A stretch of DNA of 62,552 nt from Candidatus Shapirobacteria bacterium (GTDB lineage: Bacteria > Patescibacteriota > Microgenomatia > UBA12405). The position numbers and the translations under genes were made by a program. Every line of letters starts with the position of its first letter. The first letter of the stretch is position 1. Under the pieces are notes generated by a model that ran no database searches, had not been told where the DNA came from, and saw nothing but the letters and a program-made list of their open reading frames with translations. The stretch spans positions 1-62,552 of the forward strand of contig JBAZML010000004.1 of the NCBI GenBank assembly GCA_041649835.1, in the 5' to 3' direction. Shown here piece by piece: positions 43,322-62,550 of the stretch.

Positions 43322-44320
43322 TTAGGCGGAGGAAATAATTCCAAGAGAAAAAAGCAAGGCCATAATAGAGTTACCTCCGACAGACATAAACGGCAGAGGA
43401 ATGCCGGTGACTGGTAATAAACCAAGATTCATTCCAATGTTAATAAAAGTCTGGGCCCAAATTTCAAAGGCGATTCCTAAGGTAAACAGGAATAGGGGCA
43501 AATTATTTGTGGTACTGAATGCCTTGCTTAGAAGTGTTTTGATAATTAAAAAATATGAAGATAGCATTAATATGACTGCAAATAGGCCTAATTCCTCGGT
43601 GGTAGCGGAAAAAATGAAGTCTGAATGTTTTTCAGGTAAAAATAATAATTGTCCTTGAGTCCCTTGGCGGTAACCTTTGCCAAACAAACCTCCAGAGCCG
43701 ATGGCTATTTGAGATTGAATCAGATTATAACCTTGACCAAGCGGATCAGAAGCAGGTTTTAAAAAATGTTCGATACGTTGACGTTGATAATCTTTTAAAA
43801 TAAATTTGTAGGCTAATGGTGAAGCGAGAATTAGAATAATACCGGCAAAAATACTAAGTCTCAAAAGTTTTTTGTTATAAAGTATTATCGGAATCATAAG
43901 AATGAATACTGTAATTGCACTTCCAAGATCAGGTTGAAGCATGATAATTCCAACCGGGATTAAGTGTAGTAGTGGCATTGTGGTTGTTGATAAAAAAAGC
44001 ATCAATGGACCTTTAACAATTTCACTAGGTTGGACCGAAATAGGGCCAATATAAAGCCAGCGTCTAGAACCTCGAATAAAGTTTCCGGTAATAATTGGTA
44101 TCAGTAATATGATGCAAGATATGATCAACAACATTATTCCCTGCCCTTTAACTTGTTTTGGATTTATTTGTGTACCAACTATAAATAAAATGATTCCGAG
44201 TATCCAAGCAAATAATTGCTTCCAAAAAAGTTGGGGTGCCAAAGAGCTAATCATCAGTAGATTAAGTGAACAAAGAATTATCAGGCTAATTATGAGAGGT
44301 AGAGAGATAATTTTTCTCAT
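43322..44320 (-). CDS. rodA: SEDS peptidoglycan polymerase RodA
   Basis: GSRRW, QPSE, QPDLG, QRQRI, QSQIAIGSGG, LPEKHSDFIF, GIPLPFMS. Confidence 0.92.
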   Translation of the reverse strand: MRKIISLPLIISLIILCSLNLLMISSLAPQLFWKQLFAWILGIILFIVGTQINPKQVKGQGIMLLIISCIILLIPIITGNFIRGSRRWLYIGPISVQPSEIVKGPLMLFLSTTTMPLLHLIPVGIIMLQPDLGSAITVFILMIPIILYNKKLLRLSIFAGIILILASPLAYKFILKDYQRQRIEHFLKPASDPLGQGYNLIQSQIAIGSGGLFGKGYRQGTQGQLLFLPEKHSDFIFSATTEELGLFAVILMLSSYFLIIKTLLSKAFSTTNNLPLFLFTLGIAFEIWAQTFINIGMNLGLLPVTGIPLPFMSVGGNSIMALLFSLGIISSA

Positions 44321-47318: not shown

Positions 47319-48470
47319 TTATTTATTTTTTCTTAAAAAGGCGGGGATGTCGAATTCATCTTCAATTTCAACACCCATGGGAATTTCCTGATCTGCCATC
47401 AAGTTTTGAAGTTGAGGAGCCAACTCTTTTGGTTCTTCAATGGAGTCAAGATTAATAAGTGTTTTTTGGAGAGATAGTGGTTTTTTGTAGGAGGAATATA
47501 CTGAATTTTTAGCAGGGTCAAAACCGGTGGCAATGACAGTAACCTTAATTTTATCCTTTAGATCAGGATCTATTGATGCTCCAAAGATGACATTGGCATC
47601 GGTAGCAACGTGAGAGGTAATAGTTTTTGCTGATTCTTCAATTTCGGCCATAGTTAGGTCCGGGCCTCCGGTTATATTGATGAGAACTCCGCGAGCACCA
47701 TCAATATTAACCTCAACTAAGGGTGAATCAATTGCGGCTTCAACGGCATCTTGGGCTTTGTTAGCACCTTCCCCTTCTCCAACGCCCATTAGAGCGGATC
47801 CGGCGTTACTCATAATGGATTTAATATCAGCGAAATCCAAGTTAATGAGTCCGGGTGTAGTTATAAGATCGGCAATGGCTTTGGTGCCCTTGGTTAAGAC
47901 TGAATCGGCGATTTTGAAGGCTTCAAGCAATGTTGCTTGAGAATTAACCACTTCCATAACCCTTTGATTAGGAATAACAATTAGGGTGTCGACGTTTTGC
48001 CGAAGTCGAGATAGACCCTCATCTGCCTTGCTCATACGTCGGGTGCCCTCAAATAAAAATGGTTTGGTGACGACGGCAATTGTTAGAATATTTAATTCTT
48101 TTTTGGCTATTTCAGCAATTATTGGAGCTGCACCGGTACAGGTGCCTCCACCCATGCCACCAGTGATAAAAAGCATATCTGTACCCTCAAGGACTTCTTT
48201 GATGCGTTCTCGGGATTCTTCGGCAGCTTGTTGACCGATGTTCGGATCGCCTCCAGCTCCAAGACCTTTGGTGATTTTTTCGCCAATTTGAATTTTGATC
48301 GGAGCCAACGAATTTAATAAGGCTTGAGAATCGGTGTTGACAGCAATAAAATCGACACCTTTGATTTCTTCTTGAGAAATCATTGAGTTGACGGCGTTAT
48401 TACCACCACCACCGACACCGATGACTTTTATTTTGGCAAATTGACCAGTAAGAGTTTTAATTAAGCCCAT
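47319..48470 (-). CDS. ftsZ: Cell division protein FtsZ
   Basis: GVGGGGNNAV, GGMGGGTCTG, NLDFAD, C-terminal DIPAFLR. Confidence 0.98.
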   Translation of the reverse strand: MGLIKTLTGQFAKIKVIGVGGGGNNAVNSMISQEEIKGVDFIAVNTDSQALLNSLAPIKIQIGEKITKGLGAGGDPNIGQQAAEESRERIKEVLEGTDMLFITGGMGGGTCTGAAPIIAEIAKKELNILTIAVVTKPFLFEGTRRMSKADEGLSRLRQNVDTLIVIPNQRVMEVVNSQATLLEAFKIADSVLTKGTKAIADLITTPGLINLDFADIKSIMSNAGSALMGVGEGEGANKAQDAVEAAIDSPLVEVNIDGARGVLINITGGPDLTMAEIEESAKTITSHVATDANVIFGASIDPDLKDKIKVTVIATGFDPAKNSVYSSYKKPLSLQKTLINLDSIEEPKELAPQLQNLMADQEIPMGVEIEDEFDIPAFLRKNK

Positions 48471-48472
48471 AT

Positions 48473-49726
48473 TTAGGGTAAAAGAGGTTCAATAAAATTT
48501 TTAAGACGTCCAAAAATTCCATCAAAAGATACTTTTAATTTTTTGTTTGAAGAATTATTTTTTGGGTTAATTTTATGGGTTTGAAAGTACAGGATGGTAC
48601 CAATAGTACTGGAAAATGCCGGATTGGTGATGTCATCAACCAAACCTCCTAATCGTGGAGGTTCTGCTATTCTGACCGGGAGTGGAATAATATCACCGCA
48701 TATTTCTTTGGCTAAAATGGTTTGAGAACCACCTCCGGTCAAGACAATACCGGCCGGGATAGAATTTTTATAGCCATTATCTTCAATTTGATCGAAAATA
48801 AGACCAAATATTTCTTCTAATCTGGCTTTAATAATACCGTTAACTGTGGTAGAAAAAGAGATTTTCTTTTTATCTTCGCCAAGAATACCCAGATGAGTCA
48901 ATTCAATTTCGTCTTCAAAGCCTTTTTTGTCGGCATAAGCTTTTAATTTTATTTTGATTTTTTCGGAATCTTGAAGGGGCAGTCTCAGACCTATAGCTAA
49001 ATCATTGGTGATGTTGTTGGCACCAATGGGAATAACACCGGAAAAGATGGGTGAGGATTCCTGAAAAATTGTCAGAGTAGTGTTACTTCCACCAATATCC
49101 ACAAGAGCAACACCTAATTCTGTTTCAGTATCAGTCAGGCAAGCTTTGGCAGCAGTTAAACCGGAATATGCCAATGAATCGACTTTTATACCGATATCTT
49201 CGAGACACTTGTAGAGATTTTTTAAAGCTGGAGTTGAAGCTATGATTAAATGAGTTTCCACTTCAAGACGAATACCATTCATTCCAATTGGATCGACAAC
49301 ACCTTCCTGACCGTCAACAGTATAAAGTCTGGGAATAACATGAATAATTTCTTTGTTGGCTGGTAGCGAAATTGCCTTGGCAGCTTCGATAGCTCTTTCG
49401 ATATCAGCTGCAGAAATTTCTCCGTTGGTACTACTAATGGCGGTAACCCCTTTGGAGTTAATTGATTCAAAATGAGGAGCTGTTAGGGAAATGAAAGCAT
49501 GATTGATTTGAAAACCAGCCATTCTTTCAGAAGATTCTATACATTCGGTTATAGTTTTGGAGGCTTGTTCAAGATTAATAATTTGACCCTTTTTAAATCC
49601 AACAGCTGGAACTGAAGCAACCCCAACGACATTGATTTTTGTTTCATTTTCCGGATATTGCCCGATAATGCTGGTTATCTTTGAGGTACCGATGTCTAAA
49701 CAATTGATAGTCTTAAAATGTTGCAT
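48473..49726 (-). CDS. ftsA: Cell division protein FtsA
   Basis: LDIGTSK, VDIGGSNT, GIVLTGGG. Confidence 0.96.
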   Translation of the reverse strand: MQHFKTINCLDIGTSKITSIIGQYPENETKINVVGVASVPAVGFKKGQIINLEQASKTITECIESSERMAGFQINHAFISLTAPHFESINSKGVTAISSTNGEISAADIERAIEAAKAISLPANKEIIHVIPRLYTVDGQEGVVDPIGMNGIRLEVETHLIIASTPALKNLYKCLEDIGIKVDSLAYSGLTAAKACLTDTETELGVALVDIGGSNTTLTIFQESSPIFSGVIPIGANNITNDLAIGLRLPLQDSEKIKIKLKAYADKKGFEDEIELTHLGILGEDKKKISFSTTVNGIIKARLEEIFGLIFDQIEDNGYKNSIPAGIVLTGGGSQTILAKEICGDIIPLPVRIAEPPRLGGLVDDITNPAFSSTIGTILYFQTHKINPKNNSSNKKLKVSFDGIFGRLKNFIEPLLP

Positions 49727-49735
49727 GTTTTAATT

Positions 49736-50815
49736 TTAGAGCCTTTTGATAAGTTTTAATAGTTTAAGATTTGGTGACGGTGGAATTGAGGAGGTATTTT
49801 TTTTAATATATAAAAGTTTATAGATAGCACTATCAAGTGAATCACTGGTAAGTTCCGCATCTTTAATTATAATTGTATTTTTGGGTGATTTTTTTTGTAA
49901 CCATAAAGCATTTTTAAGTTGTTCATCTTGTTGGCTTATGGGTAAGGGAATAACAATGGAATTGAGATTTAAGGTGGCAATTTCTTGGGTTGTATTGGCA
50001 CCGGCCCGGCTGATAGTAACTGCAGCATGATGAAATACCCAACCAATATCAGCTGAATCAATGTAGTCTTTGGTTATGTAATTAGGGAATTTTTTAGAAA
50101 GCCGGCTGAAGGACTTGAAATCTTTTGGTCCGGTTTGATGGATAACTGTAAAATTTTGAGTCAGAAAAGATAATAACTTTTTTAAAATTATGTTTAGGTG
50201 ATGAGAACCTTGATTACCTGCAGTAAGATAAATCAGTGGAAATTTTTTGAGATTGAATTTTTCTTTTTCGAAAGTTTCGGAGTGAATATTAAATATTTCT
50301 CTTCGAAGAAGATTACCAGTCAAATGATGTTTGTCAGACATTTTTTGAATCGGAAAGGAGAGAGCTGTAAATTGCGAAAAGAGTGAATTAATTCTGGTAG
50401 ATAAACTCAGAGTTTGAGTTTGTTCATGAGTAATGGAAGGGATTTTATTAAAATAGGCGGCTATGACGACGGGAACGGAGACATAACCACCAAAGGAAAC
50501 AACCAGATGGGGTTTAATTTTAGTGATGATTTTATGAGCCTCCTTAAAGCCGATAAAAATTTGGGGTAAACCGGAAAGAGTATTTGGTAACCAACGACGA
50601 TCAAATTTACCACAAGGAATACCGTAAAATTTAACTTTATAGTGCGGAATTATTTTTGATTCAATTGAAATTTCTGTATCAACACTGGAATTAAATTGCC
50701 GACCAATGTAATAGATATCCCAGTTGATGTCGCGATCATCTCTTAGTTGATGAATTAATTCAAGAGCGGGAGTGGTGTGGGTGCCGGTAATGATTATTTT
50801 TCTCGTTTCGGTCAT
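49736..50815 (-). CDS. murG: Lipid I N-acetylglucosaminyltransferase MurG
   Basis: TGTHTTP, FGGYVSVP, HEQ, GNLLR, GNQGS, SRAGANT, Q..NA. Confidence 0.92.
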   Translation of the reverse strand: MTETRKIIITGTHTTPALELIHQLRDDRDINWDIYYIGRQFNSSVDTEISIESKIIPHYKVKFYGIPCGKFDRRWLPNTLSGLPQIFIGFKEAHKIITKIKPHLVVSFGGYVSVPVVIAAYFNKIPSITHEQTQTLSLSTRINSLFSQFTALSFPIQKMSDKHHLTGNLLRREIFNIHSETFEKEKFNLKKFPLIYLTAGNQGSHHLNIILKKLLSFLTQNFTVIHQTGPKDFKSFSRLSKKFPNYITKDYIDSADIGWVFHHAAVTISRAGANTTQEIATLNLNSIVIPLPISQQDEQLKNALWLQKKSPKNTIIIKDAELTSDSLDSAIYKLLYIKKNTSSIPPSPNLKLLKLIKRL

Positions 50816-51890
50816 TAACTGAGTATAGCAATTTAGAATATCTTTTTTCGATATTCATAGCCAAACCAAGAGCGCAAAACAAGGTTATTAATGAAGATCC
50901 TCCATAGGCGATGAAAGGAAAAGGAATGCCGGTTAGTGGTATCAGGGCAACAATAGCTGCGAAATTAATTAAACCTTGATAAGCAATCCAACAGGCAATG
51001 CCCCCCAAAAGTAATTTTTCGTAAAGTTCGGTAGCGATTTGAGAAATTCGAATAAGACGAGAAATTAATAACAAATATAAATAAGTAATCAGAGTCAAAC
51101 CGATAAATCCTGTCTCTTCACCGACAATAGCCAGTATCGAATCGGTACTAATTTTGGGGAGAAACTTGTATTTATGATCAGAATTGGCAAAACCTTTACC
51201 TGATAATCCGCCAGAGGCAAGTGACAAAATCATTTGTTCACTGTGATAACTAAGATTTTGGTCGGTCTGTTGATTTAATAAAGTTTTGACACGATTAAGT
51301 CGGTATGGAGATATCAAAATCAATAACAAACTCATGATAGTAATGACAAATCCCGCTGAAAATAGACTCAATATTTCTGCACCTGATAAATAGTATATGG
51401 AGATAACAATGGCAGAAATCATAACGGTAGTACTCAGATTTGGTTCAGAAATAATCAAAATTAAAGGTAGTCCTAAATATAAGGCTAAATTTTTGAGATT
51501 TCTTTTTTCCGACAATGAAAATAAATAAGAAAAAAAGATAACTGATGCCAGTTTGAAAAGTTCAGAGGGTTGAAAATTAAAAAATCCGAGATCAATTTGT
51601 CGTCGGGCTCCAAGAATTTTAAGGCCAATTCCGGGAATTAAGACTAAAATTAGCAGGATAACGGAGACAAAATAAATTCGAAAAGAATTGTTGACAAAAA
51701 TACTCAGTTTGATTTTTGAAATGATGAACATACAGATGAATCCGAATCCTAGCCAGATGAGTTGTTTTTTTAAAAAAAAATACGGATCACCAAGAGTTTT
51801 TTCAGCCTCAAAAAGTGATGAAGAAGAAATAAAAAGAAGACCAATAAATGACAAAAGTGACGAATAAGTGAACAAGGGAGATATCTTCAT
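50760..51890 (-). CDS. ftsW: SEDS protein FtsW
   Basis: KKQLIW, GARRQI, FQPSELFK, EPNLS, YRLNR, GIPFPFIAYGGSS. Confidence 0.93.
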   Translation of the reverse strand: MKISPLFTYSSLLSFIGLLFISSSSLFEAEKTLGDPYFFLKKQLIWLGFGFICMFIISKIKLSIFVNNSFRIYFVSVILLILVLIPGIGLKILGARRQIDLGFFNFQPSELFKLASVIFFSYLFSLSEKRNLKNLALYLGLPLILIISEPNLSTTVMISAIVISIYYLSGAEILSLFSAGFVITIMSLLLILISPYRLNRVKTLLNQQTDQNLSYHSEQMILSLASGGLSGKGFANSDHKYKFLPKISTDSILAIVGEETGFIGLTLITYLYLLLISRLIRISQIATELYEKLLLGGIACWIAYQGLINFAAIVALIPLTGIPFPFIAYGGSSLITLFCALGLAMNIEKRYSKLLYSVNDRNEKNNHYRHPHHSRS

Positions 51891-51891
51891 T

Positions 51892-52983
51892 TCAAAATTT
51901 TGCTAGGATTTCAGGTCTAATAATAATTGGATCAATTTGATTTGAAAATATTTCAAATGAATTATATTTTTGGATGGTAATCCCCTTTTGATCTCTTTTG
52001 GTTAATTCCGAACCGATTATATTTTGATTGCTAAATCTTTTTTGTTCCTGAGCAATATCGATTGAGTAATTTAAATTGATAAATTCGGCTAAGTGATAAT
52101 AAAAAAGAGGGGTTAAATTGTTAATTAATTCAATTTGGGTATAAAAAGCAAAAGAAGCGGTCAGACGGGGATTACACTCCAGTAGATAAACCTGATTATC
52201 TGAGACAATAAAGTCTAAACCAAAAAAACCACGATAATTTAATGGTTTTAATATTTTTTCAGAAAAATTGGTAGTGATTTGATTTATTTGTTCCTGAATT
52301 TCCACGGGTGCAAGGGAGGGCCATTGGCGTCCAACTGTGGCAAAAGGATTTTGGGTAAAATCGATTAGACCAGTATATTGAAGTGCCGGAGGACTTTGAA
52401 TTAATCCGTAACGAGTGAGACAACAATTATTTAATAAAGAATAACCTGTTAAAAGCGGCGAAAATTTGGCTAAAGTTTTTTGGGGAATAATAGTTTGAGC
52501 AATTTCATAATTATTGAAATGGTGAGTACTGTTACCTGCCCAACCAAAATGAGTTTGGATAATTAAATTTTCACCGAATTTTTCCTGGGTTTTTTTAAAA
52601 GATTCCTGATTGAATTCCGCAATTATACCCGGTACAACCGGTAATTTATTTTGTTGACATATATCGAAGAATTTAACCTTATCTTCTAAAAATCGGTTCA
52701 TAGAAGCGGCATTACTGGCATTAATCCAGTGATTTTTTAAAGTTAAATGTTCAATTTTAGCGGAAGGTTTAAAAGGAATAATGACGGGTTTTGGAAATAA
52801 TTTTATTTTTTCTTGAATATTATTTTGAGACAAAAGGAAACCGCTATTTTTTATTTTTAAATTATCTTGAAAAATAGACTGAAAATTAGGTAGCTCGGGC
52901 AAATTTATGTCTAAAAATTTGTCGACTACTAAGAAGAAAAAATCGTAACCGGAATTTTTTAATAAATCTTCTAAATGATTCAT
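51892..52983 (-). CDS. ATP-grasp carboxylate-amine ligase of unknown specificity
   Basis: LEDKVKFF, FGWAGNST loop, YRGFFGLDFIV...VYLLECNPR. Confidence 0.82.
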   Translation of the reverse strand: MNHLEDLLKNSGYDFFFLVVDKFLDINLPELPNFQSIFQDNLKIKNSGFLLSQNNIQEKIKLFPKPVIIPFKPSAKIEHLTLKNHWINASNAASMNRFLEDKVKFFDICQQNKLPVVPGIIAEFNQESFKKTQEKFGENLIIQTHFGWAGNSTHHFNNYEIAQTIIPQKTLAKFSPLLTGYSLLNNCCLTRYGLIQSPPALQYTGLIDFTQNPFATVGRQWPSLAPVEIQEQINQITTNFSEKILKPLNYRGFFGLDFIVSDNQVYLLECNPRLTASFAFYTQIELINNLTPLFYYHLAEFINLNYSIDIAQEQKRFSNQNIIGSELTKRDQKGITIQKYNSFEIFSNQIDPIIIRPEILAKF

Positions 52984-53780
52984 AATCTGGCGGTACCGGT
53001 CAACAAAATAACCGGATATTCCCCAACTTCAAAGCTTTTTCGGGCTTCATAGAATGAGGCAAGGGTTAATGCAGATTCGGGAGAAGCTCTAAATTGTTTC
53101 ATAAATTCGAGACAATTGATTGCCTGAGTGTTTTTGACGATAATTCCAATACCTTGATGTTTTTTTATTGCCTGAATAATTTCCTTTTTTAGAGGTAGAT
53201 ATTTGACACTGAGAGCGTCGGTAATAGTTTCTGTTTCTAGTGTATATTGAGGGTCAAAGCTACTACAGATAGTGGGATTACTGGCGGGTTGAGCAGCGAA
53301 AATTTTAACGCTATCGGGCATAATTTTGCTGATTCCCAAAAGGGTGGTGCCGCTGCCGACAGGAATAAAAATACTGGTGATTTGAGGTAATTGGGCTAAT
53401 ATTTCGGTGGTAATTTGACCGTAGCCGGTTTGAGCAGTAATGTCGGTTGATTGACGAAGTAGATATGATTGGTTGGCTTTTGAAAATTTGATGGCATCAC
53501 TAATGGGTTTAAGGGATTCGATAATATGTCCTTTGATAAGGGATAATTTTTTGGGATTAATGTTTGGAGATACAAAAACGGTTAAAGGGATGCTGGCCTG
53601 TTGACAGTAAAAAGAGGCTGAAATAGCAGCGTTGCCAGTAGAGGAAATTACCGCTGATTTAAAGTCATTATTAATTAAATTTTGAACTTGTAAGGGCAAG
53701 GCTCGGTCTTTGGCTGAACCGGTAGGATTTTGATCTTCTCTCTTGAAATAAATTTCATCAATTTTGGTTAAGGGTGTCAT
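52980..53780 (-). CDS. Fold-type II PLP-dependent enzyme (threonine synthase/cysteine synthase-like)
   Basis: KREDQNPTGSAKDR (PLP lysine), SSTGNAA, PVGSGTT phosphate loop, VILLTG. Confidence 0.88.
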   Translation of the reverse strand: MTPLTKIDEIYFKREDQNPTGSAKDRALPLQVQNLINNDFKSAVISSTGNAAISASFYCQQASIPLTVFVSPNINPKKLSLIKGHIIESLKPISDAIKFSKANQSYLLRQSTDITAQTGYGQITTEILAQLPQITSIFIPVGSGTTLLGISKIMPDSVKIFAAQPASNPTICSSFDPQYTLETETITDALSVKYLPLKKEIIQAIKKHQGIGIIVKNTQAINCLEFMKQFRASPESALTLASFYEARKSFEVGEYPVILLTGTARL

Positions 53781-53849
53781 ATTAGATAAATAGTTGATTA
53801 GATGAGTAGATGTGTAATAATCGAATTGATTATATTTTAACTAAATTAT

Positions 53850-54014
53850 ATGTCAGATACTAATAATAAGGTTATTTGTCCTGATTGTCAGGTAGAGATA
53901 GAAAGTGAAACTTTCGGAGTGGGAGATATTCTAGAATGTCAGGAATGTGGAACTGAGGTAGAAATCATATCAATAAATCCGTTACAATATCGTGAATTAG
54001 TTGAGGAGAAGTAA
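53850..54014 (+). CDS. LysW-like small acidic Zn-ribbon (amino-group carrier-like) protein, 54 aa
   Basis: Not in ORF track (under 60 aa). MSDTNNKVICPDCQVEIESETFGVGDILECQECGTEVEIISINPLQYRELVEEK: two CxxC pairs in the LysW pattern (CPxC...GDILxCxxCGxExEx...P.L); ends EEK rather than EDWGE. Confidence 0.82.
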   Translation: MSDTNNKVICPDCQVEIESETFGVGDILECQECGTEVEIISINPLQYRELVEEK

Positions 54015-54542
54015 GCGGTAAGCTCCATCATATTTGAAACTATTATCAGTGATTTCAAACTCTCCATAACGGACTCCCCTACCTAGTCGGGAAGAATCAA
54101 CGTAAATTACCTTGTTACCAATTTTTTCGATAACGAATAAAAGATGGTGGCCATTTTTTTGACGGATTAAATCGGCAGTTTGAATGTCATGAACATCGAT
54201 TCTTTTTGATAGAGGATGTGAGGTAAGCATGTCGGCGGAGATGCGGCGGACATCAAGATTGATAGAAAAATAGAAATTTAAGAGATGACAAGCGAGACCA
54301 GAGCAGTCGATACCTAATTGGTGTTTCTTCTGAAAATTGTAGATTTGTTGAGGACTTAAATCGATTATTTTAATATTCTCATTATTGGCAAATTCAATGG
54401 TTTTTAAGGCTAATTCTTTGGCATTTCCTTTGCCGATTAAAGTATTATCAGATGAAATTTGCTTGGGAATATTAGTGTGATACGGCAAGCCGATGTATTT
54501 TAGAATTTCCTGACGGAGTTCTTCTAGTTTAATCCGAGCCAT
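53997..54542 (-). CDS. NlpC/P60-like (papain-fold) protein
   Basis: YIGLPY...GIDCSGL...ADLI....GHH...VDSS. Confidence 0.75.
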   Translation of the reverse strand: MARIKLEELRQEILKYIGLPYHTNIPKQISSDNTLIGKGNAKELALKTIEFANNENIKIIDLSPQQIYNFQKKHQLGIDCSGLACHLLNFYFSINLDVRRISADMLTSHPLSKRIDVHDIQTADLIRQKNGHHLLFVIEKIGNKVIYVDSSRLGRGVRYGEFEITDNSFKYDGAYRLLLLN

Positions 54543-55558
54543 AATCCAAAAATTGCTAATATGACTGTTGCCAGCCAGGCTCTAAATACTATTTTTGGTT
54601 CTTCCCAACCATTTTTTTGCAGGGTTAAATGAATTGGAGCTGCCGGAAATAATTTTTTATGAAGGTATATTTTACTAAAGATTTGTAAAGCACTAGACAT
54701 ACCTTCGATAATAAATGGGGCGCCAACAATAAACAAAGGAACTACTTTACCTAGTAGTAGAGCGATAACAGCGAAGGTGGCACCAAAAGAGAGAGAACCA
54801 ACATCACCGAGCCAAATACGGGCTGGGTAAACATTGAAATAGAGAAAGGCAATTAAAGATCCTATCCATAAAGATAGAAATAGAGAAATGGGTGTATCCA
54901 ATGAAGTTCCGGCCAAAATCCAAAAGGCAAAAAGGGAAATCATTAAGGTACCACAAGCTAATCCATCTAAACCGTCGGTAATATTGAAAAAATTAGCAAA
55001 AGCAACAATGATTATTGTAGAGATAGGAATAAAAAACAGACCCAGGCTAACGGCGCCGATAAAAGGTAAATAGATAAAATTGATACCAAGTTGAAAGTAA
55101 ATAAGTAAGGAAATAATGGTTGCCAAAACCAACTGAAGTAACAACTTGTATTTCATCCGAAGACCAAAAAATCCGGTATTTTTAAAATTAAAAAACTTGA
55201 GAATATCATCGTAAAGTCCAAGGAGGCCAAAACTTATAAAGGTAAAGAAAATAACGATTAGTTCGTTAATTAAATGATAATTACTGGAAATAAAAAGTCG
55301 TGACATTTTTAAAATTGGGAACAGAAATGAGAACAAAATGACAACGGTGAGAATAATCAAAAGTCCCCCACCAACAGGAGTGCCGCTTTTTTGAGCATGA
55401 AATTTATCAAAAATAGGGGTACTTTTATTTTGAAAATCTAGAGTTGATTGCTTTTGCCGTTGAAATTTTAATCGGTAAAGAAGATTAATATAGGGAACTA
55501 CCAGGATGCTGGTGGCGAGGAAGGAAAACAATAATAGGCCGAGGTATAGGTGGATCAT
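54524..55558 (-). CDS. mraY: Phospho-MurNAc-peptide transferase MraY
   Basis: KSGTPVGGG, GLYDD, NITDGLDGL, WLGDVGS, APIH. Confidence 0.95.
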   Translation of the reverse strand: MIHLYLGLLLFSFLATSILVVPYINLLYRLKFQRQKQSTLDFQNKSTPIFDKFHAQKSGTPVGGGLLIILTVVILFSFLFPILKMSRLFISSNYHLINELIVIFFTFISFGLLGLYDDILKFFNFKNTGFFGLRMKYKLLLQLVLATIISLLIYFQLGINFIYLPFIGAVSLGLFFIPISTIIIVAFANFFNITDGLDGLACGTLMISLFAFWILAGTSLDTPISLFLSLWIGSLIAFLYFNVYPARIWLGDVGSLSFGATFAVIALLLGKVVPLFIVGAPFIIEGMSSALQIFSKIYLHKKLFPAAPIHLTLQKNGWEEPKIVFRAWLATVILAIFGLWLGLN

Positions 55559-56883
55559 GTTTTTATATATTTTATATTAGCACCAAGGGAACAGAGCCGG
55601 TCGGCTAACTTTTCATATCCTCGCTCAATAAATTCAACATTATCGATAATACTTTCACCGTTTGCTGTCAGAGCAGCCAATGTGGCGGTGGCACCAGCCC
55701 TCAAATCGGAGACGGCGATGTGAATTGGTTTTAATTTTGAAGGACCGTATATTTTGACTCCATGAAAATATTCGAGATTATCCGATTCAGGATTAAAATG
55801 GTAGTACTCTGAGGGATTGGTGACTTCCGGATTAAAAAATTTTGTTTTGGCTCCCATCTGATTTAGAGTGCTGATATGTTGAAAACGTGAAGGAAATATT
55901 TTTTCAATAATGGAGCTACAACCAACAGATTGTGTCAGAACCAAACTAAAAATTGCTTGCCAATCGGTCATGAATCCTGGTTCGGGACCGGTTTCAATAT
56001 CAATGGCTTTTAAGTTTTTAACCCAATTTATGGAAATTTCATCTCTACCCCGAATTACTTGTGCCCCCATTAGTTCAATGATTCTTAAAAAAGTTTCAAT
56101 ATTTGTAGGTCTAATCCGCATAATATTAATTGAACCTTTGGTACATAATGCGGCACAGGCAAAGGTTACGGTTTCATTTCGGTCACCGATGATTTGATGT
56201 TCTGTTCCGTTAAGTACTGAAACGCCTTTGATATAAATTTTTTTTGGATCAGAGGTGTCCCGTTTTATCTTGGCCCCCATGTCATTTAACATTTCAATGA
56301 GATCATCTATTTCTGGCTCTAGGGCGGCATTTCTAATAACTGTTTCACCATTGGCAACAGCGGCCGTCATGATTACCACTTCGGTGACAGTGTGGGATGG
56401 TTTTGGAAATTCAAAATCGGTTGCTTGAATTCCGGAAGTAGTGAAACGTAAATGATCAGAAAACTCTTCGACATTAATATTCATTTTTTTGTAACATTCG
56501 AAAAGCCGATCAAGAGGTCTGGCACCCAATTTGTCACCACCTGGAATTGGGACGATAGCTTCGCCACAACGAGCCAATAAAGGAGCGGCGAACATAAATG
56601 AGGAACGGGAAACATTTCCGGTACCGTGTGGAACAACCGATGAGTTAATTTTATTGGTGGTGATTTCCAAGCTGTGAGTGCCGGTATAATTTATCGTTGA
56701 ACCCATTGATTTGGCGATACTTTCGGTAATATGAACATCTGATATGCAGGGAACATTGAGTAAATGAGTAGTCTCTTTGGATAGAAGACTGGCAATTATT
56801 TGTTTAAATGAAGCATTTTTGGCACCTCGGATGGAAACTTCACCATTTAGTGGTTTACCACCATTAATAATATATCGGGACAT
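55555..56883 (-). CDS. murA: UDP-GlcNAc 1-carboxyvinyltransferase
   Basis: GAKNA, PGGDKLGARP (Asp at the Cys115 position), EPEIDDL, PGFMTD, DLRAGA, RGYE. Confidence 0.93.
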   Translation of the reverse strand: MSRYIINGGKPLNGEVSIRGAKNASFKQIIASLLSKETTHLLNVPCISDVHITESIAKSMGSTINYTGTHSLEITTNKINSSVVPHGTGNVSRSSFMFAAPLLARCGEAIVPIPGGDKLGARPLDRLFECYKKMNINVEEFSDHLRFTTSGIQATDFEFPKPSHTVTEVVIMTAAVANGETVIRNAALEPEIDDLIEMLNDMGAKIKRDTSDPKKIYIKGVSVLNGTEHQIIGDRNETVTFACAALCTKGSINIMRIRPTNIETFLRIIELMGAQVIRGRDEISINWVKNLKAIDIETGPEPGFMTDWQAIFSLVLTQSVGCSSIIEKIFPSRFQHISTLNQMGAKTKFFNPEVTNPSEYYHFNPESDNLEYFHGVKIYGPSKLKPIHIAVSDLRAGATATLAALTANGESIIDNVEFIERGYEKLADRLCSLGANIKYIKT

Positions 56884-58181
56884 TATTTATTATTTTTGTA
56901 TAAATTAATAATTTTTTGAAATATTTTTAGACCATCAGAACCACCAGAACTAAAGTGTACCAGTATGTCACCAGTTTTTAGACTATTTTGGTAATGTTTT
57001 ACAATCTCTTCCGGAATAGGTAAATAAATACTACGGGGAATAATATTTAAGAAATCTTTGGCAATGAGACGGTCGGATTGTTTTATCTTGGAATTGAATT
57101 TTAATTTATAGATTACTGTTTCAGTGGCAAGTTCAAAAGATGGTAATAAAAGGTTTAAATTGGAACGATATTGCATAAATGAGGCGTGATTTTCATAAAA
57201 AACTTTTAATCTCGATTGGGGATGGGTATCTTTTATGGCTTTGAGTGCAGCACCAATTCTGTCGGCTGATTGGGCAAAATCATCGATAAAGATTATTCCT
57301 TTATTATTTCCAACCACTTCTAAACGTCTTTTTATACCTTTAAAATTTTTGAAACTTCTCTTTATTGATTCTGAAGATATCTTGAGCTTATTTGCCAAGG
57401 TTTCAACTGCCCCTAGATTTTCCTGATTATGTTTGCCTAACAACTGATTGGATATTTTGGTTTCACTGTAGGGTATTTTTTGACATTTGGCGAAACTAAG
57501 CAAAGGTAAAATTAAGGTATCATTTGAATTGTAAATTAAAAGACCATCTTTGGGGATGTTCTCTACCAATTGTTTGAAAGCATTAAAATTTTCGTTTTCA
57601 TTAGAATAACTTTCCCGATGTTCCCATTTGGCACTGGTTAGGATTAGGTATTTGACAGGGTAATATAAAAATTTAGCTTTGGTATCAAGTCCATTTATTG
57701 ATTCGTCGGCTTCGACAACTGACCAATTTGAATTGGAAAAATGGAGAGAATCTAAGCGATTAAGGCTTTGACCTCCAATCATGTAAGCAGGGTCATAATT
57801 AGCATTTTTAAGCAAATAAGTGACGGCAGCAGTAATGGTGGTTTTGCCATAAGACCCGGCAATTAAAATGGAGTTGTTCTTAATTAGGTTTTGGGAAATG
57901 TATTGAGTGGCGGAAATGTAGGGAATTTTTTGAATTTTTATATCTTCAAAATCTGTCTGAGTATTATGGAATGAAGCATAGGATGAACCGATAATAGCTA
58001 AATCAATCTGAGAATTAATCTCTGTCTGATTTATGGGAATGTTGGCTTTTTTTAGTTGTTTATTGAAAGGCGGATAGGTTTTTTCCTGATCTGACCCGCT
58101 TATTTGATGACCTTGTTTTTGTAGAGCTAAGGCAAGTGGCGCTGTCATGGAACCGGCAATGCCAACAAGGTGTATATGCAT
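56883..58181 (-). CDS. MurC-family ligase, Mpl-like (UDP-MurNAc:peptide ligase)
   Basis: IHLVGIAGS, GSDQEKTYPP (Mpl-type GSDxxxYPP), AGSYGKTT, VEADE, GIKRRLE, DDFAQ. Confidence 0.75.
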   Translation of the reverse strand: MHIHLVGIAGSMTAPLALALQKQGHQISGSDQEKTYPPFNKQLKKANIPINQTEINSQIDLAIIGSSYASFHNTQTDFEDIKIQKIPYISATQYISQNLIKNNSILIAGSYGKTTITAAVTYLLKNANYDPAYMIGGQSLNRLDSLHFSNSNWSVVEADESINGLDTKAKFLYYPVKYLILTSAKWEHRESYSNENENFNAFKQLVENIPKDGLLIYNSNDTLILPLLSFAKCQKIPYSETKISNQLLGKHNQENLGAVETLANKLKISSESIKRSFKNFKGIKRRLEVVGNNKGIIFIDDFAQSADRIGAALKAIKDTHPQSRLKVFYENHASFMQYRSNLNLLLPSFELATETVIYKLKFNSKIKQSDRLIAKDFLNIIPRSIYLPIPEEIVKHYQNSLKTGDILVHFSSGGSDGLKIFQKIINLYKNNK

Positions 58182-58183
58182 AT

Positions 58184-58786
58184 CTATTGATTATATGACA
58201 ACCACTGCCCTTGAGTAAAATACTGGAATCCTGGGAAATTTCTTTTGTAGTAGCCAAGCTTGGTTTTGGCATTAAAACGTCCCAAGTAACAATACTTTAA
58301 CTTTGAATTAAAACTATCAGTAACTAACTGGAGGGAGAGTCTAATGGGTAAATCATTGTGAGCTAATTTGGGATTATAAAAAACATAGGCTATATGAGAG
58401 ATATTTTTATCGATATAGCAAATTGAGTAGGCACAAATTTGCTTATCCTGGTCATACCATTCATATAGATAGTTAAAAATATGATTGATGAATACGGTTT
58501 TTATTGAGGATACTGGGAATTCCCAACCCAATTCTTTGACCCAACTGACAAGTTGTTTTTGAATTTTGGGAGTATATAAAAACTCAGATAGAGGAATTAG
58601 TTTGTAGGTAAAATTTTCGGTTTTTTTGATAATTCTTCTGTTTTCTGATGATAATTGAAATAAATTCAAATTGCATCGAGAACTGGAATTTTCATCAATG
58701 TAAAAAGTATGTTTGGAATTTCGTTGTGGTAAAAGACCATTTTGATAATTTTCTTCAATCGAATGATCGTTTTGGATATTATACAT
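58184..58786 (-). CDS. Bpt/ATE-like aminoacyl-tRNA-dependent transferase
   Basis: SR..LNLFQLSSENRRIIKK, YVFYNP.L...L, YCYLG....GYYK..F align by eye with the ATE_N/ATE_C pattern of Bpt. Start moved to MYNIQ, overlapping the murE stop. Confidence 0.65.
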   Translation of the reverse strand: MYNIQNDHSIEENYQNGLLPQRNSKHTFYIDENSSSRCNLNLFQLSSENRRIIKKTENFTYKLIPLSEFLYTPKIQKQLVSWVKELGWEFPVSSIKTVFINHIFNYLYEWYDQDKQICAYSICYIDKNISHIAYVFYNPKLAHNDLPIRLSLQLVTDSFNSKLKYCYLGRFNAKTKLGYYKRNFPGFQYFTQGQWLSYNQ

Positions 58787-60032
58787 TTTGAGATTTAAGC
58801 CGAAAGGCAGTTCTAAAAGCTTCGGCTTCTGACCAGGGATATTCAGTGGAGCCATGAAGAATACTAGTTTCATGACCTTTGCCACAGGCGATAATAGTGT
58901 CCCCTGCTTTGGCGATTTTAATTGCTAGGTTGAAGGCATCCTGACGGTTGGGAATATTGGCATAATGAAATTTACTTGGGTCGGTAATAATCGGATTCAA
59001 TGAATCAATTAAAATTGATTTTTGAAGATTAATCCCGGAAATTATTTGTTGATTTATATCTTCGACTTTTTCATTTCTGGTATCGTCAGCAGTAATAATG
59101 GCAATATCTGACAATTCAGATACATTTTTTCCCATTATGGGCCTTTTACTTTTGTCCCGGCCACCGGTAGCTCCAAAAATAACAATTATTCTACCTTTGG
59201 TAGTGAGACGAAGAGAGGAAAGGGTAACCAAAAGAGCGTTGGGAGTATGGGCAAAATCAATGATTGTCTTTAGATGAAGACTGTTTTCAATTATTTCTCG
59301 ACGACCTTTAGTTTCGGGAAATTTGATAATTGTTTGAGAGAATATTTTTGGATCAAGGTTTAATTTTGAAAATACAGCAAAACTAGCCAGAATATTATAG
59401 ATTTGATATTCATAATTACTGTCGGTAGTTAGCTTATGATCATTTACGGTAAAGTTTAGGGTATTGGAATCGATTTCTATATTTTTGGCAGTAAAATCGG
59501 ATTTATTTTTTATACTATATGTTGAAACCGGAATAGTAATCATTTTACTTAGTGCCTGATATTGAGAGTCATCACGGTTAATGACACCGAAGTCAGATTG
59601 TGAAAAGAGTTTGGCTTTGGTAGCGGTGTAATTTTCAATTGTTTTGTGGTAATCAAGGTGCTCGTGAGAAATATTGGTTATCAAACTTATTTTAAAATGA
59701 CAGCCAAAATATCGATATTGATCAATGGCGTGTGAGGTGACCTCGCAAATGACATGGGTATAACCATTTTTTTGGTAATCCAAAAACATTTGTTGAAGTA
59801 TTTTGGGATCAGGACTGGTGGTGTGTAGGCCAGGAGAACTTATGGTACTAATGACTCCACATTTTATACCGCTGTTTTCCAATAGTTTTTGTAATAAGGT
59901 ACAGGTAGTAGTTTTACCGTCAGTTCCGGTGACTCCAATTAGAATAAGTTTACGGCTAGGAAATTTAAAATATAGATTCCAAAATATGCTTTGAGGTAAG
60001 TGCCAAAGGAGATTTTTTAATTTACGAATCAT
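58779..60032 (-). CDS. murE: UDP-MurNAc-dipeptide--diamino acid ligase MurE
   Basis: GVTGTDGKTT, CEVTSH, TNISHEHLDYH, IDFAHTP, FGATGGRDKSKRPIMG, DDTR, GKGHE. Confidence 0.9.
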   Translation of the reverse strand: MIRKLKNLLWHLPQSIFWNLYFKFPSRKLILIGVTGTDGKTTTCTLLQKLLENSGIKCGVISTISSPGLHTTSPDPKILQQMFLDYQKNGYTHVICEVTSHAIDQYRYFGCHFKISLITNISHEHLDYHKTIENYTATKAKLFSQSDFGVINRDDSQYQALSKMITIPVSTYSIKNKSDFTAKNIEIDSNTLNFTVNDHKLTTDSNYEYQIYNILASFAVFSKLNLDPKIFSQTIIKFPETKGRREIIENSLHLKTIIDFAHTPNALLVTLSSLRLTTKGRIIVIFGATGGRDKSKRPIMGKNVSELSDIAIITADDTRNEKVEDINQQIISGINLQKSILIDSLNPIITDPSKFHYANIPNRQDAFNLAIKIAKAGDTIIACGKGHETSILHGSTEYPWSEAEAFRTAFRLKSQNV

Positions 60033-60045
60033 AAAAGATGTTTAA

Positions 60046-61641
60046 TTATAACAAAGGCTTCAATTTTTGAGCTATTTCGAACCAGATTGGGGCAGCGGTT
60101 GATGAGCCCCATTGAGATAATTTGGGATTGTTAACGGTGACAATCATAGTAAATATGGGATCGACACAAGGATAAAAACCAATGTATGAACCAATAGTGT
60201 TGGAATCGATATATTCCCCCTTTATAGCAACCTGAGCAGTACCACTTTTAGCACAAACTTCCATGTCTTTTGGTTTTAAAACGGCAATAGGACTATTATC
60301 GACAGCATAGCTTAAAATATCCCTCATTAAAGCCATGGTTTCGGGACTGTAGACGTCACTTTTTTCAATGGGACTATTTTGATTCAGATGGACTTTTACT
60401 AATTGACCATTGTTGGCGATAGCGTTGAAGGCTTGAATCATCTGGAGTTGATTTACAGCCAATCCCTGGCCAAAAGCAGCAGTGGCCAAATCAATATCCG
60501 GCCAAATTGTTTTAAGAGGAGAGATTGATTCTCCGGTTAATTCAACCCCGGTTTTTTGATCGAGTTTCAAACGATGAAAATAATCTAGGAAATTCTTTAA
60601 TCCCATTTCACCAATTATGTAACTCATGCCAATATTATCGGAATTTTTAATAATATCTTTTAAAGTCGAATCGGCATGGAAATTGTTGTCCCAGTTGTTG
60701 ATTGTATATTGACCAATAGTTCTGGATTGATTACATTTTTGACAGATAAAGTCAGAACTGATGCTTTTGGAATCCAAAGCGGCAGACATAATTAAGGGTT
60801 TAAAAATAGATCCCGGTTCAAATAAATCACTTATATTGGATACTTTTGTTTTTTCTTGGGCAGAAGGACTGGATTCGTAGCTAGCCATGGTAATAATTTC
60901 ACCACTTTGAGGTTTTATAATAATTATTGAGGCTGAATCAGCCTGATATTTTTCAACTCCTGCCTTTAAGGCTTTTTCAGATAAAAATTGAATTTGACGA
61001 TTGAGAGAAGTACGAATATTTTGGCCGTCTATTTCATTTTTTTGCCAATTTTTACGGGTTAATAAATTTCCTCCAGTACCATCAACAATGGTTCTGGTGA
61101 AACCGATTTGTCCGGAAATTTGTCGACGGTAATATCTTTCCAGGTTAAAAATAATATTTGAAGCTAAATTTTTTTCCGGGTAATAACGATTTTGTTTTAA
61201 ACTAAAATCTAAGCCATCAAGAGTTGACAATTTGAGCATTTCATCACGATTGAATTGAGTGATAAATTCCATCCATTTTTGAGCCGGATTGTTATATTTT
61301 TCTAAAGCTTTGGCGTTTTGGGTAGCAAATTCTGGTTTGATAGCGCTTATCTCGGTTAGAATTTCAGATAAATCTTTTTTAAAATTTGGCTTGTAAAAAG
61401 CAAGATTATAATAAGAATAGTCTAAACTTAGGGGATAATTATCTGAACTTAAAATGTGTCCCTGTTGAGGAACAATTTTTTCCAGTTTATATATTTGGGA
61501 AATAGCTTTATCATGAAGTTCCTGGCCTTTGATTACCTGCCAATAAAATAATTTGGCTAATATAAAAATAAAACAAATATAAATAGTAACTAGAATTGTT
61601 TTAGGGCGTGATGATTCCATTGAGGGCGTATTTGTTGGCAA
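60046..61641 (-). CDS. ftsI: Class B penicillin-binding protein (FtsI/PBP3-like)
   Basis: N-terminal TM; SxxK (GSIFK), SDN, KSGTAQ. Confidence 0.9.
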   Translation of the reverse strand: MPTNTPSMESSRPKTILVTIYICFIFILAKLFYWQVIKGQELHDKAISQIYKLEKIVPQQGHILSSDNYPLSLDYSYYNLAFYKPNFKKDLSEILTEISAIKPEFATQNAKALEKYNNPAQKWMEFITQFNRDEMLKLSTLDGLDFSLKQNRYYPEKNLASNIIFNLERYYRRQISGQIGFTRTIVDGTGGNLLTRKNWQKNEIDGQNIRTSLNRQIQFLSEKALKAGVEKYQADSASIIIIKPQSGEIITMASYESSPSAQEKTKVSNISDLFEPGSIFKPLIMSAALDSKSISSDFICQKCNQSRTIGQYTINNWDNNFHADSTLKDIIKNSDNIGMSYIIGEMGLKNFLDYFHRLKLDQKTGVELTGESISPLKTIWPDIDLATAAFGQGLAVNQLQMIQAFNAIANNGQLVKVHLNQNSPIEKSDVYSPETMALMRDILSYAVDNSPIAVLKPKDMEVCAKSGTAQVAIKGEYIDSNTIGSYIGFYPCVDPIFTMIVTVNNPKLSQWGSSTAAPIWFEIAQKLKPLL

Positions 61642-61807
61642 AATCTATTTCTAATTTTTGATTTTCATATTTTAATTGAGCATATTTTTTTTCAGATTCA
61701 GAATATTTTTGATTATAGGCAACTATTTGTCCGGAATAATAAACGGAAAATGATAACTGAAAGGCAAGTAGTCCCAGGGCAATGGCAAAAATTACACGAT
61801 TTGACAT
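61601..61807 (-). CDS. FtsL-like small bitopic coiled-coil protein
   Basis: TM helix plus coiled coil; lies between rsmH and ftsI. Confidence 0.65.
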   Translation of the reverse strand: MSNRVIFAIALGLLAFQLSFSVYYSGQIVAYNQKYSESEKKYAQLKYENQKLEIDFANKYALNGIITP

Positions 61808-62550
61808 TATTTTATTTTATAAAATCTAAGAACGGATGAACGGGATAAGGGATTTTTTCTTATTTCAGTATGGTTTGGCAGAATTTTTTTGGTTTCCAGA
61901 TGATGAGTGATTATAAATTTTTTCACTATTCGGTCTTCTCCGGAATGAAATGAAATGATGGCTACTTTGGCATCTTTTTTGGTGATTTTTAGACTAGTTT
62001 CAAGAAGTTTTTTCAGATTAAGAAATTCCTGATTTACTGCGATTCTAAGGGCTAGAAATATTTTAGTTGCCGGATTTTTAAAAGTGGAATAGTGCTTTTT
62101 TTGATAGTAACTATCAATAATATCGCTTAAATATTTACCGTTTTTTATAGGTTTTTTTTGTCTGGCCTGAATTATTTCAAACACAAGTGGTTTGGCTAAT
62201 TTTTCCTGAGCATATTTGGTGAAGAGTTCATATAATTGGTCTTTATCCCAAGTGTTAATTATTTCTTCGGCAGTAAGTGATTGAGTTTTGGGATTTAATC
62301 TCATATCAAGTGACTCAATGTCGTTAAAAGAAAATCCCCTACCGCTTTCTGATTGTTGATTGACACTTAAGCCTAAATCGGCCAAGATTCCGTCTAAAGG
62401 GATACTAATTTCTTTTTTCCAAATAGTTAATAATTTAGAAAAGTTACCTTTTATGGGGTAAAAATTGGTTGATAATTCTAATTTTTTTATTCTATCAATA
62501 GCAACTTTTTGATTTTCAGGATCGGCGTCTAAACCATAAACTGTGGCCCC
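61807..62550 (-). CDS. rsmH: 16S rRNA C1402 N4-methyltransferase RsmH; 5' end outside the window
   Basis: Frame stays open to the window end (GATVYGLDADP...GNFS...DGILADLG); LDMRL, FLALRIAVNQE, ISFHSGEDRIVK, NPLSRS. Confidence 0.93.
   Translation of the reverse strand, partial: GATVYGLDADPENQKVAIDRIKKLELSTNFYPIKGNFSKLLTIWKKEISIPLDGILADLGLSVNQQSESGRGFSFNDIESLDMRLNPKTQSLTAEEIINTWDKDQLYELFTKYAQEKLAKPLVFEIIQARQKKPIKNGKYLSDIIDSYYQKKHYSTFKNPATKIFLALRIAVNQEFLNLKKLLETSLKITKKDAKVAIISFHSGEDRIVKKFIITHHLETKKILPNHTEIRKNPLSRSSVLRFYKIK

Follow-up and report, generated by a model that had tools for sequence, protein, structure and literature searches.

We analyzed a 62,552-nucleotide stretch of DNA (hereafter, the window), which is contig C4 of a 1.16-Mb Candidatus Shapirobacteria genome (56 contigs, rated 99.7% complete). 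It carries a remodelled division and cell wall (dcw) cluster with a set of six genes, which encode an aminoacyl-tRNA transferase resembling ATE1 and Bpt (ATE-like), a UDP-N-acetylmuramate (UDP-MurNAc) ligase of the Mpl type, a putative cysteine peptidase resembling NlpC/P60 proteins, a zinc-ribbon protein resembling the carrier LysW, a fold-type II pyridoxal phosphate (PLP) enzyme, and an ATP-grasp ligase. MurC, MurD, and every known source of D-Glu are missing from this genome, and the six-gene set probably installs residues 1 and 2 of the peptidoglycan stem peptide.

Genes were called from an open reading frame (ORF) listing together with Pfam and NCBIfam scans of the window's proteins. Along the minus strand, the cluster begins with rsmH (61807-62550), a 68-amino acid ORF without a family match in the FtsL position (61601-61807), and ftsI (60046-61641), followed by murE (58779..60032; 417 amino acids; TIGR01085, 319 bits against a cut-off of 257), whose product lacks the N-terminal UDP-binding domain. 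The ATE-like gene (58184..58786; 200 amino acids) is a borderline match to PF04377, at 24.5 bits against a cut-off of 25, and the gene for the Mpl-type ligase (56883..58181; 432 amino acids) matches the murC and mpl models at 201 and 154 bits. Next come murA (55555..56883; TIGR01072, 405 bits against a cut-off of 393), mraY (54524..55558; PF00953 and TIGR00445, the latter at 166 bits), and the NlpC/P60-like gene (53997..54542; 181 amino acids), which was tentatively assigned from orthologues with PF00877, a conserved Cys-His-polar triad, and fold matches. The LysW-like gene (53850..54014; 54 amino acids, ending in LVEEK; PF21344, 35.9 bits against a cut-off of 27) is on the plus strand; it converges with the NlpC/P60-like gene, their 3' ends overlapping by 18 nt, and diverges from the PLP gene over a 69-nt spacer (53781..53849). 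The minus strand resumes with the threonine-synthase-like PLP gene (52980..53780; 266 amino acids; PF00291, 131 bits) and the ATP-grasp gene (51892..52983; 363 amino acids; PF02655, and PRK06524-like at 85 bits). The Pfam-assigned genes ftsW (50760-51890), murG (49736-50815), ftsA (48473-49726), and ftsZ (47319-48470) are the canonical downstream context of the six-gene region. Apart from the region of the LysW-like gene, adjacent genes on the minus strand either overlap or are separated by 13 nt or less, and the gene order and tight spacing described in an earlier, sequence-only reading of this locus were both borne out. Directly 3' of ftsZ, the stretch 43322-47097 encodes a class-I aminoacyl-tRNA synthetase of 926 amino acids with IleRS-like domains, together with another SEDS protein of the RodA/FtsW family (332 amino acids).

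A genome-wide check for murD, murF, ddl, murB, alr, and murI gave a divided answer: murD and murI were not found, and ddl, murB, alr, and a murF-like gene were present, as was murA. A Mur_ligase_M search of the whole genome returned only four ligases, namely MurE, the Mpl-like ligase, a MurF-like ligase on contig C13, and FolC on contig C14; the Mpl-like enzyme is thus the sole MurC/Mpl-clade ligase of the genome. The best genome-wide match to the MurD model TIGR01087 came from MurE, a cross-hit of 88 bits where the cut-off is 212. The glutamate racemase MurI was not found in the genome at E ≤ 1, and the genome search returned no fold-IV D-amino-acid transaminase. The C14 ligase was considered as a hidden MurD and rejected, since its score of 322 bits, with a cut-off of 163, marks it as a true FolC. 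Its gene overlaps one that, judged by eye, resembles YhhQ/VUT-type membrane transporters (C14:16676-18714), an arrangement that hints at folate or vitamin salvage in a biosynthesis-poor genome.

The remaining wall genes have moved. For the MurF-like ligase, murF was the best model, yet at 159 bits it falls below the cut-off of 289. In C13:25009-28286, ddl (minus strand) adjoins an alr-murF pair whose genes overlap by 4 nt; the alr gene, translationally coupled to the murF-like one, encodes a true alanine racemase, and the neighboring ddl a true Ddl. The three genes sit beside the ribosomal protein genes nusG-rplK-rplA. The D-Ala-D-Ala branch is therefore relocated out of the dcw cluster as one unit, and murB lies on contig C16. 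Because murF, ddl, alr, and murB are only relocated, the steps for residues 4 and 5 and the MurB step are canonical. The sequence-only reading had described the ATE-like gene as sitting in the murF slot, had noted that murC, murB, and ddl are absent between murG and ftsA, and had proposed that part of the Mur ligase ladder is replaced. As statements of position the first two stand, but they do not signify loss, as a murF-like gene, ddl, and murB occur elsewhere in the genome. Real loss applies to MurC and MurD, which are missing here and in all 34 genomes with the ATE-like gene that we describe below, but not for murF, ddl, alr, and murB.

MurE, the canonical enzyme for step 3, is also kept. 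Its TIGR01085 match starts at profile position ~75-94, and we considered whether the truncation belonged to an "off-nucleotide" route. This was rejected, because short MurE proteins (~400-435 amino acids) occur throughout the class, murD-positive relatives included, and show no link to the module. The motif associated with residue 3 reads DDTR in the window's family (f1), EDPR in the rest of the class, and DNPR in E. coli, so residue 3 may not be meso-diaminopimelate, judging from this motif. A residue-3 change linked to the module was rejected, as only the window's family has DDTR, and EDPR is shared by the other ATE-positive and the murD-positive genomes.

We then considered how far the arrangement extends. 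All 17 genomes examined from the window's family, which represent 11 genera and include one single-contig genome, share the whole gene order, as does the one sampled genome of the neighboring family. The gene order is not due to chance, and, as had been suggested, the extra genes belong to the dcw locus as conserved components. Four of them, the genes for the NlpC/P60-like peptidase, the LysW-like protein (on the opposite strand), the PLP enzyme, and the ATP-grasp ligase, form what we call the module. Close homologues of the window's proteins carry the label Candidatus Shapirobacteria. The module also lies between mraY and ftsW in families f15, f21, f23, and f39, where the cluster reads murE-ATE-ligase-murB-murA-(ddl)-murF-mraY-module-ftsW. 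In murD-positive relatives it reads murE-murC-murB-murA-(ddl, alr)-murF-mraY-murD-ftsW. The two clusters differ in exactly three respects: the ATE-like gene precedes the MurC slot, the Mpl-like ligase gene occupies that slot, and the module stands in place of murD. A replacement of murF by the ATE-like gene, as first supposed, does not agree with this arrangement, since these relatives carry the ATE-like gene between murE and the MurC slot with murF still in the cluster.

A presence/absence survey of 301 genomes of the class Microgenomatia gave the same picture. The ATE-like gene occurred in 34 genomes from eight families, and all 34 had a homologue of the ATP-grasp gene, which lay inside the four-gene module at every ATE-positive locus examined except that of the f7 genome L072. 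MurD exceeded its cut-off in 211 of the 301 genomes and MurC in 181. Among the 34 ATE-positive genomes, no MurD match was stronger than E 1e-33 (true MurD proteins of the class score 1e-43 to 1e-127), and none had MurC above the cut-off, the best match scoring 287 bits. The ATP-grasp family itself comprised 415 homologues, mostly labeled Shapirobacteria, and was found in 19 of 19 sampled genomes of the window's family. Neither a complete canonical set elsewhere in the genome nor a lack of conserved linkage to the dcw locus was found. Scattered genomes (f43, f44, f49, and parts of f4 and f8) had neither a clear MurD nor an ATE-like gene. In L072, the sole sampled f7 genome (G005:C1:73600-93500), no PLP, carrier, or peptidase gene lies within 10 kb of the ATP-grasp homologue, and a different contig carries the ATE-like gene. 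The genome measures 1.8 Mb with 2% contamination.

Family f37 (18 genomes) offers an instructive intermediate. There, the module lies outside the dcw cluster, and a ligase of ~455 amino acids is encoded between the peptidase and carrier genes (L062:6954-8315 and L068:6409-7806, plus strand; L074:11949-12944, minus strand). The embedded ligase is a divergent MurD (173-184 bits against the cut-off of 212) that falls as sister of the MurD clade in the tree, and it is the only MurD-like signal in f37 genomes, which keep a canonical MurC and have no ATE-like gene. This pattern links the module with the residue-2 step, and it links the absence of MurC and MurD with the ATE-like gene and the new ligase.

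Beyond the class, we searched 401 sampled genomes of the phylum with the ATE-like profile, and 19 of them, from six additional families, had a member. In other classes of the candidate phyla radiation (CPR), the six genes and mraY are again neighbors, in several different orders. Orders that are shuffled yet linked are as expected for genes that are held together by function and not by descent alone. Even where the other genes are shuffled, the LysW-like and PLP genes are divergent neighbors in every lineage examined. Two fusions, each an open frame without stops, join members of the set: a 689-amino acid protein combines an ATE-like part (residues 23-217) with an Mpl-like ligase (residues 228-686; L115:8451-10517, minus strand), and a 699-amino acid protein combines an Mpl-like ligase (residues 5-442) with an NlpC/P60-like part (residues 453-696; L120:7789-9885, minus strand). 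All the six-gene proteins are small and look soluble.

The ligase is a three-domain enzyme of the MurC/Mpl clade that falls below both equivalog cut-offs, scoring 201 against 335 bits for murC (TIGR01082) and 154 against 388.7 bits for mpl (TIGR01081); with the former, a murD-positive relative's canonical MurC reaches 413 bits. The best solved structure for it is that of Psychrobacter Mpl (3hn7), ahead of every MurC. We compared it with the sequence features specific to Mpl, namely the Tyr of GSD..YPP and the loop (S/T)AFFDKRSK (PMC3060825). The ligase has GSDQEKTYPP, in which the Tyr corresponds to Mpl Tyr35, and EADESINGLDTKAKF, an insertion at the Mpl-specific loop after EADEY; Mpl Tyr182 is kept in most members outside f1. 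In a maximum-likelihood tree, the ATE-linked ligases were monophyletic (100/99) and formed a clade with E. coli Mpl (b4233; 97/90), apart from canonical MurC. The Mpl-like identity proposed from sequence is thus supported by structure, motifs, and phylogeny. Unlike Mpl, the ligase has DDFAQS in place of DDFAHHP and is encoded in a biosynthetic operon as the only muramate ligase, where the retention of MurE implies a dipeptide rather than a tripeptide as cargo. Psychrobacter arcticus Mpl joins L-Ala-D-Glu to UDP-MurNAc at 1.4 per min, compared with 260 for the tripeptide (PMC3060825), and this weak activity places the dipeptide ligation needed here within reach of the scaffold. As for the suggestion that the ligase attaches a pre-formed peptide to UDP-MurNAc, MurE is kept, so that a dipeptide is a more probable cargo than any longer peptide.

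Many of the 516 homologues of the ATE-like protein carry PF04377. The predicted structure (AlphaFold2, mean predicted local distance difference test score of 93.3) retrieved human, yeast, and Kluyveromyces lactis ATE1 as the top Foldseek matches (E 3e-9, TM score 0.71), followed by MprF and FemX, in keeping with the transferase fold that had been anticipated. We rejected a 233-amino acid version with a GTG start, since the orthologues start at the ATG at 58786 (200 amino acids), which overlaps the murE stop codon. Like ATE1 and Bpt, the protein has the same fold, the core motifs of ATE_C, and an invariant Tyr-Lys pair (Y180-K181); R22, R37, and R50-R51 are also among the residues that are invariant in the alignments. 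In K. lactis ATE1, the catalytic Lys follows a Tyr, and a positively charged, Arg-lined pocket binds the acidic N-terminal acceptor; ATE1 and Bpt both accept N-terminal Asp or Glu, and the acceptor pocket is conserved in Bpt (PMC9351520). The conserved Arg residues of the ATE-like protein lie in the N-terminal part, where ATE1 binds its acidic acceptor, and we infer a one-by-one correspondence between the K. lactis residues and those of the ATE-like protein. It differs from ATE1 and Bpt in having only 200 amino acids, without the Cys-rich ATE_N motif (ATE_N had no match in the protein, and the family alignments contained no conserved Cys cluster), in being embedded in a wall operon, and in being fused to a ligase in one lineage. 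It also lies far below the equivalogs for Bpt and arginyltransferase, with 29 bits at best against cut-offs of at least 170. FemX, MurM, and MprF are more distant relatives.

The carrier is above the cut-off for PF21344 and scores 38.6 bits with TIGR01206, below the cut-off of 53.2. Like LysW and ArgW of Thermus, Sulfolobus, and Thermococcus, it combines a zinc-ribbon domain with a DPL motif and, after these, a short acidic tail. In LysW, however, the γ-carboxyl of the terminal Glu of EDWGE carries the cargo, whereas the tail of this carrier ends in a Lys that was invariant in 46 of 46 orthologues read (38 of the class and 8 from other classes), behind residues that vary (EEK, VEK, IQK, DEGK). 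An exhaustive search of 1.8 billion cluster representatives retrieved classical EDWGE proteins as homologues of the Lys-tailed carrier; among the short matches, 39 end in K and 15 in EDWGE. As in LysW/LysX systems, the carrier gene has as neighbors the genes for an ATP-grasp ligase and for a hydrolase by which the cargo could be released. Unlike in those systems, the neighboring ATP-grasp protein has no RimK/LysX-type match in the Pfam and NCBIfam scans, and the carrier is accompanied by a PLP enzyme, a putative cysteine peptidase, and genes of wall synthesis. The cluster contains no LysZ, LysY, LysJ, or LysK, that is, no kinase, reductase, or aminotransferase, in a comparison that was limited to the cluster, with no genome-wide search made. 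Between the carrier and PLP genes, both strands of the spacer have promoter-like sites, which reach into the neighboring genes. The minus strand reads CTGACA-16-TATAAT (53856..53829), with 11 of 12 consensus matches that make it promoter-like only, and the plus strand reads TTGATT-16-AATAAT with a TG (53794..53821), likewise only a promoter-like consensus match.

The PLP enzyme carries the lysine motif NPTGSxKDR and SS(S/T)GN, with K24, S47-G49-N50, and R109 invariant. It begins at about position 64 of the ThrC profile, so that the N-terminal ~60 residues of ThrC are missing, and it is far from the ThrC equivalogs, with 89.6 bits at best against a cut-off of 358 (all ThrC cut-offs are at least 266). 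Against the PDB, its family profile scored ~100 bits with ThrC, ~90 with serine dehydratases, and 74-80 with Ser/Asp racemases, a span of ~25 bits. By these comparisons, the protein is assignable only to the PALP fold-type II superfamily. The family profile of the ATP-grasp ligase found no close solved relative in the PDB; biotin carboxylase, an ATP-grasp peptide ligase, and BesA matched too weakly (E 1e-3) for a PylC-, LysX-, or Ddl-like subtype to be named from sequence.

The putative 181-amino acid peptidase has no Pfam match itself, and 9 of 120 listed orthologues carry PF00877. Its family shows the pattern GIDCSGL...H...D/E/H, with invariant C80 and H133 and with D, E, or H at position 149. 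The AlphaFold2 model (confidence score 91.9) matched RipA, Cg1735, Thermus thermophilus NlpC/P60, and a CHAP endolysin in Foldseek with a probability of ~1 but an E of ~0.02. Like RipA and the T. thermophilus enzyme (4xcm), it has a putative papain-like Cys-His-polar triad in the same order; it differs in its very weak sequence similarity and an extra N-terminal helical part. No signal peptide was seen, and, unlike RipA-type enzymes, the protein is predicted to be cytoplasmic, is translationally coupled to mraY, and is fused to a ligase in one lineage. Enzymes of the YkfC type are cytoplasmic NlpC/P60 γ-D-glutamyl-diamino-acid endopeptidases.

Based on these observations, we lean toward the view that the six-gene set stands in for MurC and MurD and probably also provides the D-Glu. 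Since MurE is above its cut-off and a MurF-like ligase is present, the likeliest product is an ordinary L-Ala-D-Glu start that is made by a non-canonical route. The chemistry of the transferase constrains such a route. An aminoacyl-tRNA transferase activates the carboxyl of its donor, so that it could form the bond between L-Ala and Glu only by placing L-Ala onto the Glu amine, which is the reverse of the MurD reaction. This reversal in turn requires a ligase that accepts a pre-formed peptide, as Mpl-type enzymes do.

The following sequence of steps on the LysW-like protein would fit these constraints. The ATP-grasp ligase would join the γ-carboxyl of L-Glu to the ε-amine of the carrier's C-terminal Lys, leaving both the α-amine and the α-carboxylate of Glu free; the PLP enzyme would then invert the tethered residue to D-Glu, and the ATE-like enzyme would transfer L-Ala from Ala-tRNA onto its α-amine. 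The NlpC/P60-like peptidase would cleave the γ-D-glutamyl amide to free L-Ala-D-Glu, which the Mpl-like ligase would couple to UDP-MurNAc. In the f37 variant, the same module would feed the MurD-like ligase. The proposed γ-glutamyl-ε-lysine link would leave the α-amine free, as PLP and ATE-type enzymes need, would mimic the N-terminal Glu on a protein that ATE1 and Bpt recognize, and would give the NlpC/P60 enzyme its usual γ-D-glutamyl amide. This specific order of tethering, epimerization, alanylation, release, and ligation is tentative, and we regard it as possible rather than probable.

Several points weigh against this proposal. Every substrate and the order of the steps are ones that we infer. 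The PLP enzyme is closest to threonine synthases and not to racemases, and we know of no fold-type II glutamate racemase. The ATP-grasp ligase has no informative close relative, which makes tethering to the ε-amine of Lys a guess, and the α-carboxylate of the carrier's Lys is an alternative attachment point. For the ligase, the murC model outscores the mpl model (both below cut-off), and only a single Mpl reference, on a long branch, underlies the grouping with Mpl. The absence of MurI, which could have served as strong evidence, says little: only 80 of the 301 class genomes have MurI above the cut-off, many murD-positive genomes lack it, and it is thus missing from about three quarters of the class. 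In the ATE-positive genome L072, the ATP-grasp gene stands alone. Finally, the ATE-positive genomes span only about eight families, so they represent few independent evolutionary events.

One alternative is that wall peptides are imported from a host and salvaged. The NlpC/P60-like peptidase would trim L-Ala-γ-D-Glu-X to L-Ala-D-Glu in the manner of YkfC, the Mpl-like ligase would attach the dipeptide to UDP-MurNAc, and MurE and MurF would finish the peptide, leaving the carrier, PLP, ATP-grasp, and ATE-like genes to serve other ends. CPR bacteria are commonly attached to hosts, the genome encodes no known D-Glu source, whether MurI or a fold-IV transaminase, and the ligase is both Mpl-like and, in one lineage, fused to the peptidase; Mpl itself is a recycling enzyme that accepts several peptides (PMC3060825). 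Salvage would nevertheless leave four strictly co-inherited genes without a role, and it does not account for the fusion of the ATE-like protein to the Mpl-like ligase. The f37 genomes, which keep MurC and have a MurD-like ligase within the module, fit the supply of a single residue better than the salvage of a dipeptide. We consider this explanation improbable.

Another possibility is that the same genes build residues 1 and 2 but in other roles, in which case the stem peptide would be truly non-canonical, as the sequence-only reading had proposed. The ATP-grasp ligase could synthesize dipeptides, as Ddl or L-amino-acid ligases do, or could add a residue to the α-carboxylate of the carrier's Lys; the ATE-like enzyme could add a different residue, or act like FemX on a UDP-MurNAc-peptide or lipid II; and the PLP enzyme could make an unusual amino acid by β- or γ-replacement instead of epimerizing Glu. 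ATP-grasp enzymes commonly make dipeptides, and the weak structural matches here included a peptide ligase and BesA. The PLP enzyme is nearest to ThrC, with replacement enzymes of the SbnA and CysK types also scoring, the ATE-like protein has a fold in common with FemX and MprF, and the MurE of f1 has DDTR in place of DNPR. However, ATE1 ranked well above FemX in the fold search, and the DDTR/EDPR motif tracks lineage and not the presence of the module. A MurE above its cut-off, together with the MurF-like ligase, Ddl, and Alr, argues for a Glu-like residue 2 with a free γ-carboxyl. Nothing in our analysis shows a non-canonical stem peptide, and we assign these alternative roles a low probability.

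It is very unlikely that the extra genes only decorate or regulate the wall (by a cross-bridge, a Van-type D-amino-acid variant, or trimming) while unrecognizably divergent proteins supply the activities of MurC and MurD: although the pairing of PLP and ATP-grasp enzymes resembles VanT/VanG logic, and in this fast-evolving class several family scores fall under curated cut-offs, all four ligases from the Mur_ligase_M search are assigned, canonical Ddl and Alr are already in the genome, and the perfect complementarity with MurC and MurD over 301 genomes, the placement of the module where murD would be, the presence of a MurD-like gene within the f37 module, and the ligase fusions would all have to be coincidences.

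Compared with the canonical Mur pathway, the proposed route keeps the operon context along with MurA, MurB, MurE, a MurF-like ligase, Ddl, Alr, MraY, and MurG, and it differs in that MurC, MurD, and MurI are missing, with the slots filled by non-homologous genes or, for MurC, by a paralogous gene of the Mpl type. Non-standard installation of D-Glu has a precedent in Xanthomonas, which lacks MurI and Dat and uses MurD2/MurL to invert the residue in an ATP-dependent manner after Glu has been attached (PMC8788868). That route, unlike the one proposed here, relies on MurC and a MurD homologue acting on a nucleotide substrate, and MurL is unrelated to any of the proteins at this locus; its nearest analogue in our data is the f37 variant, with its MurD-like gene in the module. 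None of the nearest known systems (Mpl, LysW/LysX, ATE1/Bpt, FemX, NlpC/P60, and MurD2/MurL) combines these parts, and full-text literature searches returned no description of the gene set, of a MurC/MurD gap in CPR bacteria, or of a link between ATE-type and Mpl-type proteins.

Taken together, our results point to an undescribed way of starting the wall peptide in Shapirobacteria-type CPR bacteria and their relatives. The reactions of MurC and MurD, both targets of antibiotics, are regarded as common to all bacteria that have a wall; a large uncultured group without either enzyme, but with the rest of the pathway retained, indicates that the textbook ladder is replaceable. The finding also corrects automated metabolic reconstructions, which score the wall pathway of such CPR genomes as incomplete. 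If the proposed route is true, it would extend LysW-type carrier chemistry and tRNA-dependent transfer of the ATE/Bpt type into core wall synthesis, and it would provide the first example of a core step in peptidoglycan precursor synthesis that depends on a carrier protein and on tRNA. It would likewise be the first "carboxyl-side" use of a LysW-type carrier, and it would explain how D-Glu is supplied in these organisms without a known racemase or transaminase.

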